Assembly (NCBI GenBank): GCA_017963125.1
Contig: JAGCUA010000069.1
Coordinates: forward strand, 87,723 to 151,722
Direction: 5' to 3'
DNA: 64,000 nucleotides
Origin: a bacterium
GTDB taxonomy: Bacteria > UBP6 > UBA1177
The notes under the pieces were generated by a model. It had not been told where the DNA came from. It ran no database searches and saw only the letters and a list, made by a program, of their open reading frames with translations. Positions 4,842 to 63,262 of this stretch are shown here, one piece after another. The position numbers were made by a program, and so were the translations under genes. Numbering within the stretch: the first letter of the stretch is position 1; every line of letters begins with the position of its first letter.

Positions 4842-6503
<1,662 letters not shown>

Positions 6504-6530: not shown

Positions 6531-6558
6531 AGGCGGTCTTCGGGCCGCCTTTTTTTTT
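6531..6558 (+). terminator. intrinsic terminator after groEL
   Basis: AGGCGGTC-TTCG-GGCCGCCT hairpin followed by T9, 28 nt after the groEL stop. Confidence 0.85.
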
Positions 6559-6635
6559 GCCTGAAAACCCTCAAGAAGTTTTGCAATCAGCTTTTAATGT
6601 GCTATATTCGCGCGGTTTTTTTATTGGAGGATTTC

Positions 6636-7430
6636 ATGGAAAAAGTGAGCGTTCTGATACTTACAGGCTACGGCATCAACTGCGATGTCGAAACGTCCTG
6701 GGCTTTTGAAGCAGCAGGTGCGGACAGGATCGAAAGAGTCCACGTCAACCGCGTCGTAAACGGCGAAGTCAACCCCGAAGATTTTCAGATCATGGTTTTT
6801 CCCGGCGGCTTTTCATTCGGTGACCACATCGCTTCAGGCCGAGTTTTAGGGCTCAAAGTCAAAAAAGAGATGGGCGAAAAGCTCAAAAAATTCATACTCG
6901 ACGGCAAACTCGTCATCGGAATATGCAACGGTTTCCAGACACTCGTCAAAATGGGCGTTCTCCCAGGCGACGAAAAGGAAGTTTTCAAAAAACAGGTCGC
7001 GACCCTCACCCACAATGACTCTGCTAAATACGAGGACAGATGGGTCCGCATCAAGGCAAACCCGAACAACCCGTCGCCGTTCCTTCAGGGGATCGATATT
7101 TTTGATGTCGCGATACGCCACGGTGAAGGCAAATTCATCGCGCAGCAGCATGACCTCAGAATGATAAAAGACAGCAACATGATCGCCTTCCAGTATGTTG
7201 ACAAAAACGGCGAGATCACGCAGCACTATCCCGAAAATCCGAACGGATCGGAACTTGCGATCGCAGGTATCACCAACAAAAAAGGCAACGTTCTCGGCAT
7301 GATGCCGCACCCCGAAGTTTTCATCAACGGTACACAGCATCCCGAATGGACGAGAATGGATAAAATGCCCGAAGCTCTCGGGCTCAAACTTTTCTCCAAT
7401 GCAGTCAGGTACGTCAGAGAAAAATTATGA
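6636..7430 (+). CDS. purQ: phosphoribosylformylglycinamidine synthase glutaminase subunit (PurQ-type class I amidotransferase)
   Basis: Start MEKVSVLILTGYGINCD after GGAGG at 6626-6630. Nucleophile elbow GICNGFQ and His-Glu motif MMPHPE. No purL or purS adjacent. Confidence 0.8.
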   Translation: MEKVSVLILTGYGINCDVETSWAFEAAGADRIERVHVNRVVNGEVNPEDFQIMVFPGGFSFGDHIASGRVLGLKVKKEMGEKLKKFILDGKLVIGICNGFQTLVKMGVLPGDEKEVFKKQVATLTHNDSAKYEDRWVRIKANPNNPSPFLQGIDIFDVAIRHGEGKFIAQQHDLRMIKDSNMIAFQYVDKNGEITQHYPENPNGSELAIAGITNKKGNVLGMMPHPEVFINGTQHPEWTRMDKMPEALGLKLFSNAVRYVREKL

Positions 7431-58045: not shown

Positions 58046-58121
58046 TGGTGCCCAGGGACAGAATCGAACTGCCCACACGGGGATTTTCAGTCCCCTGCTC
58101 TACCGACTGAGCTACCTGGGC
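58046..58121 (-). tRNA. tRNA-Phe (anticodon GAA), CCA encoded
   Basis: Minus strand reads GCCCAGG-TA-GCTC-AGTCGGTA-GAGC-A-GGGGA-CTGAAAA-TCCCC-GTGTG-GGCAG-TTCGATT-CTGTC-CCTGGGC-A-CCA. Full cloverleaf, near-identical in the D and anticodon arms to E. coli tRNA-Phe. Confidence 0.95.
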
Positions 58122-59996: not shown

Positions 59997-62030
59997 TTGT
60001 ATAACAGCAGGATCCGCGGCATCGGACTTCTTCTTGTTTTTGTTTTTCTGTTAGTTGCTGCAGTAGTAGGAATTATAGTTTATTCGGGTCAGGAAACGAC
60101 CAATTTCCAGGGTTTCGCCGAGTCTAACGAAACGATGATCAACACCGAAATCCCTGTAAGCATCAAACGAGTGCTCGTAATGGAAGGCGACACTGTTTCA
60201 AAAGGGCAGAAACTCGCAGAACTTGAAAGTCAGGAACTTGCGCTCAGGATCGCAGACATACGCACGCAGATCCTTCAGCTCGAAGCGAAAAAGGGGCTGA
60301 GCAAGGCTGAAATAAAATCGAAGATCCTGCAGAACAAAGCGCAGGAACGCGCCGTTATAAGCGAACTTGATTCGCAGATAAACACTCTCGAAAACCAGCT
60401 CAGGATCAACAGGGAACTTTCGGGCGGGCTCAAAAGCGTAAAGATAAAACGCAGCGATTCGGCTAAGAACCCGATCGAGATCCAGATCGAAACACTGAAA
60501 TCCGCAAAAGAAGAACGCAGAAAAGAGTTTGCCGAAACCAACAGAATGTACACCAGGATGCTTGCTGAAGGTGATGCTCCGGAAACTATAGAGACTCAGA
60601 AACTCACCGAAGAGCTTGAATCCCTTGAACAGAAAAATGCCGATATGGCGCTTTACGCTCCGTTTGAAGGGATCGTCGGCAGCGTATTCACAAAAAACGG
60701 CAACGGCGAAAGAGTCTTTCTTAAAGGCGGCGAAAAAGTTGAGGCTTACTCGCCGGTAATGTCGATAATCAACAAGGAACCCTCTTTCGTCAAAGGCTAC
60801 ATTCCGGAATCGCACTTCTCGGCGATAAAGATCGGCGAAACCGTCACGATAACTTCGGCAAACAACCGTAATCCGGTAACCGGCGTCGTAACGGGACTCG
60901 GCGGCAGAATAATCCCGCTTCCGATAAGACTTCTGAAAAACCACAACATACCGCTCTGGGGAAGAGAGATCGTTGTAAAAATACCGGAAAACAACGGCTT
61001 CATTCTCGGTGAAAAGGTGGATATCGCCTACGGCGGAAATGCATTGAACAATATTGCCGAAATGATGTTTTCCATCACCCATTCAAAACTCTCTGCAAAA
61101 GAAACAGATAAAAAAAAACTGAATAAATCACGGCAGAACGCGGTAGAGACGTTTCATGAAACGTCTCTACGGAATGACGGCGTGGAAAATGACCGGAATG
61201 TCACGTCAATACAGTGGGACGGCAAAGTAAAAATCGAGGCGTCTGGCGCTGTTTTTGTTCCTGAAACGGGAAAATTTCTCGTTGTTTCAGACGAAACTGA
61301 AAAGAAAACCCCGCTTCTTTTCGAAGTCGGCAAAAACGGCGAAACGAAGACGATCAGCATAAACGATTTCAATAAAATCAATGACTTGGAATCAATAGCA
61401 AAAGAAAAAGAAAACACTTACCTCATAATGTCGTCACTCAGTTACTCCAAAAAAGGAAAACTCAAACCCGAAAGAAGGATCCTTGCGAGAACAACCTTCT
61501 CAGATGGAGCTGCACATCTTGAAAAATCGGTCGATTTTTATGAAATTCTTAGAGAGTTCGCCGAAAAATCTACTTCGGAAGCAGCAATATTTCTCAAAAA
61601 AGGCATCGCTGAAAAATCAATAGATGTCGAAGGGATGTTCGTTCTCGGAGACTCGCTTTTCATTGCTTTCAAAAATCCGCTTTTCAATGAAAACGGCGTT
61701 ATCTTTGAAATAAGCAGCTACGAAACCATTTTTACTGAGAAAAAAATCTCTGAAAGCCAGCTCAAAACGATATTTGTCGATGTTCCAGAGGAAAGAAGAA
61801 TTTCTGATATTTACATGCTTTCCACGGATAAATTCTACTACACTGCTTCCTGCAACAGCGAAAAATGCGGCGGATTCTACCGCTTCGAAAACGGAAAAAG
61901 CGAACTTGTAAAAGACTTTCCGGAACTGAAACCAGAAGGGATCGCGGTCGATGACGGCGGAAACTTCTTCATTTTCTTCGACCTCGGGCAGCAGGAAAAC
62001 TCAAAATTCATGAATTTAGGCAGAATATGA
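59997..62030 (+). CDS. HlyD-type periplasmic adaptor (membrane fusion protein) fused to a C-terminal beta-propeller-like domain
   Basis: TTG start after GAGGT. N-terminal TM helix, split lipoyl-like halves (VMEGDTVSKGQKLAELE / YAPFEGIVGSVF), long coiled coil, then a beta-barrel ending about residue 365. After a linker come about 290 aa with repeated motifs EASGAVFVPETGKFLVVSDE, DVEGMFVLGDSLFIAFKNP, PEGIAVDDGGNFFIFFD. These resemble DUF3616 / SdiA-regulated / phytase-like propellers (low-confidence family call). Confidence 0.7.
   Translation: MYNSRIRGIGLLLVFVFLLVAAVVGIIVYSGQETTNFQGFAESNETMINTEIPVSIKRVLVMEGDTVSKGQKLAELESQELALRIADIRTQILQLEAKKGLSKAEIKSKILQNKAQERAVISELDSQINTLENQLRINRELSGGLKSVKIKRSDSAKNPIEIQIETLKSAKEERRKEFAETNRMYTRMLAEGDAPETIETQKLTEELESLEQKNADMALYAPFEGIVGSVFTKNGNGERVFLKGGEKVEAYSPVMSIINKEPSFVKGYIPESHFSAIKIGETVTITSANNRNPVTGVVTGLGGRIIPLPIRLLKNHNIPLWGREIVVKIPENNGFILGEKVDIAYGGNALNNIAEMMFSITHSKLSAKETDKKKLNKSRQNAVETFHETSLRNDGVENDRNVTSIQWDGKVKIEASGAVFVPETGKFLVVSDETEKKTPLLFEVGKNGETKTISINDFNKINDLESIAKEKENTYLIMSSLSYSKKGKLKPERRILARTTFSDGAAHLEKSVDFYEILREFAEKSTSEAAIFLKKGIAEKSIDVEGMFVLGDSLFIAFKNPLFNENGVIFEISSYETIFTEKKISESQLKTIFVDVPEERRISDIYMLSTDKFYYTASCNSEKCGGFYRFENGKSELVKDFPELKPEGIAVDDGGNFFIFFDLGQQENSKFMNLGRI
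61110..61170 (+). other. A9 homopolymer plus a 28-bp perfect palindrome at the adaptor/propeller domain junction
   Basis: A9 at 61110-61118 (codons AAA AAA AAA). One frame reaches TGA at 61120-61122 and the other TAA at 61124-61126. Palindrome GTAGAGACGTTTCA|TGAAACGTCTCTAC at 61143-61170. Confidence 0.9.
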
Positions 62031-63262
62031 AAAGATTACTGCCGATTTTCCTCATCATCTTCCTTCCGCTTCTCTCTTTTTGTGAAGATCTCACAATCAG
62101 CGATTTTTTAGAATCGGCTGTGAACGATCCGAGGCTCAAAAACAGTAAGGAGATCCACGATGCTTTCGACAAAGGCGGCGATACTCCGGTAGTGAAAGAA
62201 CTTGAATTCAGGACTGAAACGGGAAATTTCGAGATCGAGGAACAGACTTACGAACTGCGGCTTCATTTCAGGGGTTTCGGCGAGACGAAACACTCGAGAG
62301 AGTTTGTGAAAAATTCAAAAAACATTCTGAAAACACAGTCAAGACTCCTTCTTTCCGAAGTTTTTCATGAAAAATTCTCTTCGGTGCTGACTTACATCAG
62401 AAACAAAAAGGAACTCGCTCTTCTTGATTCTCTCAGAGAGATACTTGAAGACAAGATAAAAGTCCTCGGAAAGATGGGAGCTTACTCCGACAAGATCACA
62501 GATGTCGATATTCTTGAAATAGAAGACAAGATCACAGACATCGAAATGAAAAAAACAGAGCTTGAATCGGAACTCGAAGCCGTGCTGGCAGAGATAAAAG
62601 CAGTCACAGGAAAAGATGCCCAACCGGCATTCGACCGTGAAAAGATAATCTCTGTCGGTGAAATCAAAAGTTTCGCAGATTCCCTCGATCCCGAAAGCGC
62701 GAATTCGAAGGCTCTCGACGACCTTCACAGACAGAAAATGCTCATCACGCAGAGCGAGATCGCGCTCGAAGAAGCTAAAGACCGCAACTGGTTCAACTAT
62801 GTTTCGCTGCAGTTCGACACGGATGACCGCAATCAGAAGCCTTCACGCGGCTTTTCGTTAGGTTTTTCGATATCGATACCGGGATTCAAGAGCAATCAGA
62901 ACTCGATCCTCAAAAAACGGCTGAAATCAATAAACGACGATTCCGACTTCTATGCCGAAAAACGCCTTAACGAAACACTCGTCACAAGCAGTATCCTCAT
63001 GCTCAGAAGAAAGATCAGACAGCATGAACTCATGGTCGAAAAGAGAGAAAAAGAGAAAGAAAGCGGGATCCTCGCGAAGTATTCGTCACTTGACGGTGTC
63101 AATCCGATGATAATACTCAAACTCAAGGAAAGAATGGTGAAACAGGAGATCAAAACGGCTGAACTCGAAGCCGAAATATATGCGCTTTACATCGATCTCT
63201 GCCGGCTCACCGGAGTTTTCGAGGAAGAATCGGGCAAAAATTCGCTTTACGGAACAAAATAA
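62027..63262 (+). CDS. TolC/OEP-like outer-membrane factor (weak call)
   Basis: ATGA overlap with the upstream gene. Signal peptide MKRLLPIFLIIFLPLLSFC. N-terminal LTISDFLESAVNDPRLKNSKE resembles the start of OEP repeats. Long helical heptad regions, 411 aa. Confidence 0.5.
   Translation: MKRLLPIFLIIFLPLLSFCEDLTISDFLESAVNDPRLKNSKEIHDAFDKGGDTPVVKELEFRTETGNFEIEEQTYELRLHFRGFGETKHSREFVKNSKNILKTQSRLLLSEVFHEKFSSVLTYIRNKKELALLDSLREILEDKIKVLGKMGAYSDKITDVDILEIEDKITDIEMKKTELESELEAVLAEIKAVTGKDAQPAFDREKIISVGEIKSFADSLDPESANSKALDDLHRQKMLITQSEIALEEAKDRNWFNYVSLQFDTDDRNQKPSRGFSLGFSISIPGFKSNQNSILKKRLKSINDDSDFYAEKRLNETLVTSSILMLRRKIRQHELMVEKREKEKESGILAKYSSLDGVNPMIILKLKERMVKQEIKTAELEAEIYALYIDLCRLTGVFEEESGKNSLYGTK

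Follow-up and report, generated by a model that had tools for sequence, protein, structure and literature searches.

The dnaX gene of Escherichia coli is decoded by a −1 programmed ribosomal frameshift, which takes place at an A AAA AAG heptamer followed by a 3' hairpin. In dnaX of Thermus thermophilus, the sense strand carries a run of nine adenines (A9) with stop codons near in both other frames, and about half of the product is truncated by transcriptional slippage (PMC1088944). Nine is also the length from which many genomes select against such runs, and slippage sites which truncate a protein are hard to recognise (PMC1088944). Here we describe a candidate site of this kind in a 64,000-nucleotide stretch of DNA (the window) from a bacterium of the GTDB lineage UBP6; UBA1177 (assembly GCA_017963125.1, contig JAGCUA010000069.1, positions 87,723 to 151,722 of the forward strand). 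A first-pass annotation of the window had drawn attention to an A9 run, followed by a perfect 28-bp palindrome, within an open reading frame (ORF) of 677 amino acids at 59997–62030 (+ strand). On the evidence of the ORF list, Pfam, AlphaFold and Foldseek, this fusion gene encodes a transmembrane helix, a HlyD/EmrA/MacA-type periplasmic adaptor, a disordered linker and a C-terminal β-propeller.

Like T. thermophilus dnaX, the fusion gene has a sense-strand A9 within its coding region, where any slip by a number of nucleotides that is not a multiple of three leads to a truncated product without the C-terminal domain; in both genes the site lies at a domain boundary, in a lineage which otherwise selects against A9. 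Unlike dnaX, it encodes a periplasmic efflux adaptor joined to a β-propeller and not a clamp-loader subunit, it belongs to an uncultured rumen host, and it is known here from sequence alone. Because this architecture equals that of T. thermophilus dnaX, the reading of the A9 that we favour is that of a selectively maintained dnaX-type slippery site, which would give an adaptor-only isoform and to which we give even chances. The locus also resembles a −1 frameshift cassette in having a canonical slippery heptamer, A AAA AAA, with a stable hairpin 3' of it. However, the spacer is 24 nt long and variable in orthologues, compared with 5–9 nt in such cassettes, and no Shine-Dalgarno-like element is conserved upstream of the run, where codon 370 varies strongly.

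The palindrome calls for a different set of comparisons. Small dispersed repeats (SDR) are very small (20–30 nt) dispersed hairpin-forming sequences, often nested in other repeats or in heptamer tandem repeats, while the Rickettsia palindromic elements (RPE) are much longer, at about 100–150 bp. Repetitive extragenic palindromic (REP) sequences have been documented in frame within genes, and their GTAG-tagged class has been reviewed (PMC3733652); the SDR of Nostoc-type cyanobacteria are named in another study (PMC3116915). The palindrome described here resembles the GTAG-tagged REPs, and the REP doublets (REPINs) mobilised by REP-associated tyrosine transposases (RAYTs), in being short (20–40 bp), in starting with GTAG and in reaching many copies per genome in some hosts (PMC3733652, PMC3116915). 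As with GTAG-tagged REPs, its copies are mostly extragenic, with an occasional in-frame intragenic copy, and show compensatory stem variants. Unlike REPs, it is a perfect palindrome whose GTAG is paired with CTAC, and not an unpaired tag at one end; unlike REPINs, it is found mainly as singletons and not as inverted doublets. Furthermore, REPs are usually lineage-specific, whereas an identical 28-mer is found here across phyla, and a low-power search around its copies linked no RAYT to it. With RPE (cited in PMC3733652) it has in common the survival of a selfish palindrome in ORFs, where the frame is kept and tolerant parts of the protein are occupied, although the RPE sequence is unrelated and confined to Rickettsia. 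Set against the general description of SDR given above, several flanks of the 28-mer are similar in their nesting and heptamer tandem repeats, but the element is also present in Bacteroidales and other non-cyanobacterial phyla. For the locus as a whole, we think it somewhat probable that an A9 slippery site and an independent REP-like palindrome share one linker.

Results

In frame, the ORF reads GAT AAA AAA AAA CTG AAT AAA across the A9 (61110–61118, + strand), which encodes Lys372–Lys374 and offers, in the zero frame, A AAA AAA as a slippery heptamer of the X XXY YYZ type. After loss of one A (A8) the sequence becomes AAA AAA AAC TGA, with a stop at 61120–61122 (+ strand) and a predicted adaptor-only product of 374 aa; after gain of one A (A10) it becomes AAA AAA AAA ACT GAA TAA, with a stop at 61124–61126 (+ strand) and a predicted product of 376 aa. 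The run, its frame readings and the stops in both alternative frames are exactly as the first-pass annotation gave them, and the adaptor-only product of about 375 aa that it proposed corresponds to these two lengths. In an AlphaFold model built on 33 homologues (mean predicted local distance difference test score, pLDDT, of 80), the truncation point falls just past the complete adaptor domain. The model places a transmembrane helix at residues 4–30 and the adaptor up to about residue 345, followed by a disordered region at residues 348–400 (pLDDT ~27, all below 50) and a confident all-β domain at residues 401–677 (pLDDT >90). Both the A9 and the palindrome (Val383–Leu391) lie inside this disordered linker (61038–61196, + strand), which is hypervariable in length and sequence among orthologues, and the β-propeller domain (61197–62027, + strand) would be missing from any slipped product. 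Together with Pfam matches to HlyD_D23 and HlyD_3 on residues 42–305, these limits also bear out the domain junction at which the run had been placed.

We then compared the nucleotide sequence of the gene between orthologues. In a codon alignment of 14 of them, the A9 belongs to a conserved 24-nt block, GATAAAAAAAAACTGAATAAATCA (61107–61130, + strand), which encodes Asp-Lys-Lys-Lys-Leu-Asn-Lys-Ser (residues 371–378) and ranks first in nucleotide conservation among the 620 eight-codon windows of the gene, with 0.089 differences per codon compared with 0.162 in the next best non-overlapping window and a gene mean of 0.548. The borders of the block are sharp, as codon 370 and the codons from 379 onward are among the most variable of the gene. 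Conservation reaches past the A-run itself, to CTGAATAAATCA, and the block includes CTGAATAAA, the part which carries the shifted-frame stops. The A9 is kept in 18 of 18 distinct orthologous genes (70–97% amino acid identity) from both major clades, the other of which has TAT AAA AAA AAA CTG AAT AAA TCR as its version of the block. The stops after the run are likewise kept, in both shifted frames, in all ingroup orthologues examined: the Leu codon is always CTG or CTA, either of which keeps the A8-frame stop, and the Asn codon is invariably AAT. These stop-creating choices account for 32% (Leu) and 44% (Asn) of codon usage, yet they are always used in the block.

The signal for the A9 emerged from this whole eight-codon block and from the coding of Lys-Lys-Lys throughout the lineage, not from the Lys codons alone. 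A first synonymous-site test restricted to the three Lys codons, in 11 sequences, was not significant (P ~0.17), because Lys is preferentially written as AAA (76–83% of Lys codons) and because, of the columns in which Lys is invariant, 55% are free of any nucleotide change. In 339 kb of host-lineage DNA (254 kb coding) we found 26 distinct Lys-Lys-Lys sites, of which three groups are clade variants of the linker site and 23 are others. The linker site is encoded as AAA-AAA-AAA in all 17 copies and is the only Lys-Lys-Lys site so encoded, since none of the other 23 is all-AAA, compared with about 10 expected (P ~1e-6); one of these 23 lies in the same gene and is interrupted by AAG. Moreover, every sense-strand A-run of at least nine in the 254 kb of coding DNA is the linker site. 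A genome-wide pattern scan which allowed A7–A11 found the conserved block at the fusion-gene locus only, and all six orthologue matches carry A9.

In agreement with the coding data, A- or T-runs of nine number two in the window, where dinucleotide-preserving shuffles gave 11.4 ± 5, a depletion which indicates that the host genome avoids such runs. The A9 at 61110–61118 is the only one inside a gene, and the presence of a single A9 in the window is by itself not above chance. The other run, a T9 at 6550–6558, is intergenic, between the ORFs at 4848–6503 and 6597–7430.

A variant of the run was found in one metagenome contig (L131, ENA ERZ27298493), which carries A10; its ORF (P0090) has 376 aa and stops at the predicted TAA, with the remainder of the gene out of frame. 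This contig could represent a rare allele, a pseudogene or an assembly error. Among about 90 protein clusters, one is truncated at the A-run.

We also searched the surroundings of the run for other signals. A promoter and terminator scan of 60700–61500 returned nothing at the A-run, the conserved block or the palindrome, and an Rfam scan of 60900–61400, with E values up to 10, gave chance-level matches only. About 25 nt upstream of the A9 (window equivalent 61083–61106; loci L001–L005 and L126–L129), most orthologues can form a small and weak stem of 4–6 bp, CUUUCC...GGAAAG, which is absent from the window sequence. Only 4 nt separate this stem from the A-run, a position from which a hairpin in the nascent RNA could favour slippage.

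The palindrome, GTAGAGACGTTTCATGAAACGTCTCTAC (61143–61170, no strand assigned), starts 24 nt after the A9, and the shifted-frame stops precede it by about 20 nt. It is an in-frame, REP-like GTAG...CTAC element which encodes VETFHETSL (residues 383–391), and the GTAG at its 5' end pairs with the CTAC at its 3' end, so that both ends are tagged. As RNA it is predicted to form a 12-bp stem with a CAUG loop (−15.7 kcal/mol, z = −5.8), and the 111 nt around it fold with z = −4.5. The palindrome, its spacing from the run, its stem and loop and the peptide that it encodes had all been described correctly from the sequence. Its arm of 14 bases compares with 7 for the next best palindrome of the window and with a maximum of 10 in 50 shuffles, and is far beyond chance. 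Two perfect 14-bp palindromes with a common core (TTCATGAA) are found at 62004–62017 (AAATTCATGAATTT) and 62361–62374 (TTTTTCATGAAAAA), at most 1.3 kb from the 28-mer; the three are among the window's six longest perfect palindromes, and the clustering of the two shorter ones near the 28-mer may be due to chance.

Although the window has one copy, the exact 28-mer is present in more than 118 stretches among the matches listed from a collection of species-representative genomes. Its hosts, among these matches, are Cyanobacteria, rumen and gut Bacteroidales, Arcicella, Prolixibacteraceae, Ignavibacteriae, Neomarinimicrobiota and Patescibacteria. As is typical of REPs, single genomes can hold many scattered copies, as seen in Phormidium R1S1 (at least 11 loci), Cylindrospermum NIES-4074 (at least 9) and the rumen metagenome-assembled genome (MAG) RGIG6723 (at least 10); the host lineage itself disperses related variants only. 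The flanks of the copies are unrelated, and some copies are nested in larger repeats, within heptamer tandem repeats or beside their own half-copies (half-copies and tandems in L014, L035 and L073). Most copies are singletons whose flanks extend complementarity by 0–2 nt, and they do not form the inverted doublets of REPINs. The consensus unit, T-GTAG...CTAC-A, is a palindrome of 30 bp in which position −1 is T in 78% of copies and position +1 is A in 80%, and no target-site duplication was seen around the copies. Relatives of the element have the same GAGACG/CGTCTC stem base with different, compensated inner stems. The 30-bp unit, TGTAGAGACGTTTCATGAAACGTCTCTACA, is identical across Cyanobacteria, rumen Bacteroidales, Cytophagales, Ignavibacteriae, Neomarinimicrobiota and Patescibacteria (L006–L123; for example L014 6579–6606, L028 2587–2614 and L031 5999–6026), and holds two inverted CGTCTC (BsmBI/Esp3I-type) sites. 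Such cross-phylum identity is unusual for REP-type repeats. A search for phage carriage gave no match to the 28-mer in viral contigs, and a literature search with its sequence string returned primers for the polymerase chain reaction only. A GTAGAG-type consensus is not listed in the accessible portion of the REP paper's supplementary tables.

Copies of the 28-mer are mostly found outside genes. Open frames spanning them have a median length of 58 aa, compared with 361 aa at random positions, and 16% of copies lie in open frames of at least 150 aa, compared with 80% of random positions. The 16 copies in open frames of at least 300 aa all read VETFHETSL and, judged by eye, several of them are in recognisable proteins, including type IX secretion system (T9SS) sorting domains, a MenD-like enzyme and histidine kinases. 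VETFHETSL is the product of the one stop-free frame of three, TAG and TGA blocking the others, and the same holds for the other strand. The palindrome would thus be tolerated at our locus because it occupies a disordered linker in the element's only stop-free frame. We conclude that the locus very probably carries, in frame, one copy of a REP-like repeat that is dispersed and elsewhere mostly extragenic, and that this copy has no functional link to the A9.

The linkers of the orthologues contain at least four types of hairpin module 3' of the conserved block. The perfect 28-mer (type 1a) is found in the window, L128, L002 and L129, and in decayed form in L175; the other types are 1b (GTAGAGACGTTTCCYGAAACGTCTCC), 1c (GAGACGTATCAGGTYACGTCTC) and 2 (CCCCTCTCCA...TGGCGAGGGG), and a longer module encodes SGSSPDSVEP. 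In the window, the rest of the variable linker (61171–61213, + strand) appears, by eye, to hold two further hairpin modules in decayed form (GGCGTGGAAAATGACCGGAAT and GTCACGTC), both of them intact in orthologue L127. The family is not restricted to this gene, as type 1c has 23 exact genomic matches, all in the host lineage and at 3–5 loci per genome, and the core hairpin of types 1a and 1b is present at six sites outside the fusion gene in host-lineage DNA.

In host-lineage genomes, two in-frame hairpin repeats (GTAGAGCCGTTTCCTGAAACGGCTC and GAGACGTATCAGGTTACGTCTC, encoding VEPFPETAH...ETYQVTSL), with type 1c copies among them, were also seen in an ORF of about 1000 aa with a methyltransferase-like LDPACGSGN motif (L133 2106–2183; also L144 and L149), so that the repeat family has entered a second gene. 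Other type 1c copies, in L132, L136, L145, L150 and L154 (around the GAGACGTATCAGGTTACGTCTC match), are 5' intergenic. In these loci, from several genomes, a TATAAT-like box lies on one side of the hairpin and the GGAGG-ATG start of a small opposite-strand gene on the other, and the hairpin might be a 5'-untranslated-region or operator element.

On a tree built from the flanking domains, the module types are patchy. One linker segment, SQTTAQKETYQVTSL, is common to P0009 and P0013–P0015 and to P0055 and P0056, two clades which are far apart on this tree, and suggests that lineages have recombined their linker segments or exchanged them horizontally. The patchy modules, together with a segment common to distant clades, point to repeated insertion or recombination. 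The strongest hairpin of each orthologue starts 10–66 nt after the A-run, and a stable hairpin of some kind follows the run in 15–16 of 18 ingroup orthologues. For L157 and L158, control windows of the same gene give hairpins at least as strong as the best one in the linker, and in L175 the linker hairpin is marginal and decayed. The hairpins are thus gained, relocated and eroded, and the A-run is not bound to having one beside it. Conservation in orthologues, which had been proposed as a check on all three features, was found in all examined ingroup orthologues for the A-run and the out-of-frame stops and failed for the palindrome, which is patchy, replaced by other hairpins or decayed.

About 85 full-length homologues of the fusion protein, with 70–97% identity and all fused, come from rumen MAGs labelled UBP6, 'Spirochaetales' or plain 'bacterium'. 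More distant homologues, at 46–49% and 28–36% identity, are also single fused proteins (589–672 aa), with a short linker and without KKKLNKS, A-run or hairpin, as judged from the alignment and from the DNA of one outgroup (L177). These comparisons indicate that the adaptor-propeller fusion is ancient and that the linker is young, having arisen in the rumen 'UBP6-type' clade.

Foldseek matched the N-terminal half of the fusion protein to EmrA, MacA and AcrA, and the C-terminal domain to the β-propellers YncE and BACUNI_02894 and to the propeller of the phage Phi11 receptor-binding protein. The fold search was needed for the latter, as the C-terminal ~300 residues have no Pfam or NCBIfam match and a sequence search of this domain against PDB, Pfam and NCBIfam found nothing significant.

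Discussion

According to the mechanism that we favour, RNA polymerase would add or drop one A at the A9 in a fraction of transcripts, possibly helped by a ribosomal −1 shift or sliding on A AAA AAA, which would have the same outcome. The cell would then make the 677-aa adaptor-propeller protein and an adaptor-only isoform of 374 or 376 aa and, as a matter of speculation, the short isoform could determine how many subunits of an oligomeric adaptor ring bear a propeller and how many are bare. The palindrome would have arrived independently, through insertion of a 30-bp REP-like unit in its sole stop-free frame, as one of at least four hairpin-repeat types which entered, moved within and decayed in the linker. 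A stronger version, which we put forward tentatively and consider somewhat less probable than its converse, is that the A9 is a true dnaX-like site of programmed slippage, providing a fixed subunit ratio for ring assembly, and that the linker which it created became a landing pad for the 30-bp mobile palindrome, whose identity across bacterial phyla would imply a mobilising activity of very broad host range.

Several points weigh against this interpretation. The conservation, the uniqueness within the lineage, the conserved stops and the one A10 variant are observed, whereas slippage and both isoforms are what we infer from them. The slippage put forward in the first-pass annotation has thus gained comparative support, from conservation, lineage-wide avoidance, the L131 A10 and the dnaX architecture, while slippage itself is unproven. 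No convincing 5' stimulatory RNA hairpin was found before the A-run. Given a conserved Lys-Lys-Lys, codon bias leaves an invariant A9 mildly unlikely (~0.17 with 11 sequences, ~0.04 with 14), and the orthologues are related, so that counts of sequences overstate the number of independent events. It is also the case that the conserved block could be needed for some other purpose, as nucleic acid or as peptide. With regard to the palindrome, all-against-all clustering of the ORFs from the 118 eight-kb blocks around its copies found no recurring transposase family and no mobilising enzyme (RAYT or IS200-like), only generic families, although this test has low power as RAYTs are single-copy. Moreover, the window holds a single 28-mer copy, and the copy stands without any change in three orthologues that have otherwise diverged (those of the window, L002 and L129), which hints at some maintaining force.

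Of the alternatives for the run, the simplest is that the A9 is incidental, a conserved Lys-Lys-Lys peptide being written in the preferred AAA codon and slippage being noise, tolerated as the truncated adaptor is complete and harmless. Codon preference and the frequent lack of variation in invariant Lys columns, both noted above for the first synonymous-site test, fit this account, and as the truncated product is a whole adaptor, selection against the run could be relaxed. However, relaxed selection predicts drift to AAG in some lineages, while all 18 genes keep A9; the Asp, Leu, Asn and Ser codons share in the conservation of the whole 24-nt block, the highest in the gene; and the second Lys-Lys-Lys site in the fusion gene is interrupted by AAG. 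We therefore regard an incidental A9 as rather unlikely. The extension of conservation past the run to CTGAATAAATCA would also be accommodated if the block had some other function, as a DNA or RNA binding site, an internal regulatory signal, or a place where ribosomes pause or slide on AAA codons and so time the folding or export of the adaptor, and that the frame change is the selected outcome is our interpretation. Nevertheless, no promoter-like or terminator-like site and no Rfam match was found at the block, which is restricted to this locus, and the conserved bases are exactly those that make stops in both shifted frames, so that another function seems to us quite improbable. The first-pass annotation had also raised the possibility of phase variation at the DNA level. 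In that case, replication slippage in the run would toggle the propeller on and off within a population. The A10 contig, with its gene split as predicted, is what such a tract would produce; yet contingency loci usually show many off-length alleles, whereas A9 was found in 18 distinct genes, a single protein cluster out of about 90 ends at it, and the lone A10 could be an assembly error or a pseudogene. High-frequency switching is thus unsupported, and we consider a phase-variable tract highly improbable.

Three further roles had been suggested for the palindrome: a stimulator of frameshifting or pausing, an RNA-processing site, or a fossil intergenic terminator. If it were coupled to the A-run, it could act on the ribosome, or else serve as a processing or 3'-end-stabilising hairpin for the short product, and the presence of some stable hairpin after the run in most ingroup orthologues would be expected. 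REP hairpins, in addition, typically follow a stop codon closely and can make mRNA more stable (PMC3733652), and here the hairpin lies about 20 nt past the shifted-frame stops. The spacing of 24 nt, and of 10–66 nt in orthologues, is nevertheless unfit for known ribosomal stimulators, which lie at 5–9 nt, and the hairpins that stimulate transcriptional slippage sit 5' of the run and not 3' of it. The orthologue hairpins come from unrelated families, are decayed in L175 and do not exceed control level in L157 and L158; as they vary in kind and position and are at times decayed, we do not take the palindrome for a frameshift stimulator. A processing site specific to this gene is at odds with a repeat of which more than 118 copies are scattered over unrelated phyla, genomes and contexts. 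Coupling in any of these forms is accordingly very unlikely. That the palindrome is a fossil terminator, left when adjacent adaptor and propeller genes were fused by an indel in the A-run, might be suspected from the stops right after the run in both other frames and from the hairpin shortly downstream. However, the hairpin has no T-tract, the propeller part has neither a start codon nor a signal peptide of its own, and the ATG at the centre of the palindrome opens only a 24-codon frame. In the homologues at 46–49% and 28–36% identity, moreover, adaptor and propeller already form one ORF, joined by a short linker from which the A-run, KKKLNKS and hairpins are all missing, and therefore an A-run indel did not fuse two genes. 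The fossil-fusion idea was rejected on the strength of these outgroups, and we find it scarcely credible. An A9 slippery site and an independent REP-like repeat remain the pairing that we favour.

If the A9 is used, it would be a rare case of programmed slippage in a cellular gene, outside insertion sequences and viruses, and the first found in an efflux or secretion adaptor. It would also mean that the logic of the tau and gamma products of dnaX, two isoforms from one gene divided at a domain boundary, arose independently. We know of no earlier recoding signal in a tripartite-efflux adaptor, and the accessible portion of a 2016 recoding review has no mention of HlyD, adaptor or efflux genes. 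The combination of lineage-wide avoidance of runs with nucleotide invariance at one site offers a comparative route to truncating slippage sites. As a caution, a striking and perfect intragenic hairpin can be a selfish REP-like repeat in a tolerant linker.

Neighbouring genes

The fusion gene is followed by a TolC-like outer-membrane factor gene (62027–63262, + strand; ORF list and Pfam OEP), whose start overlaps the fusion-gene stop (ATGA). Its Pfam OEP match is weak in the window and above the Pfam threshold in orthologue L004. No ABC, RND or MFS inner-membrane pump gene adjoins the fusion gene, either in the window (62027–63262) or in L004 (6043–9706). In the latter interval, 3' of the fusion gene, we observed the TolC-like OEP gene followed by a VTC-domain gene, a DUF4956 gene and an unknown ORF of 321 aa. 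On the other side of the fusion gene, a tRNA-Phe (GAA) gene (58046–58121, − strand) is located upstream of the cvpA-xseA-fusion gene cluster.

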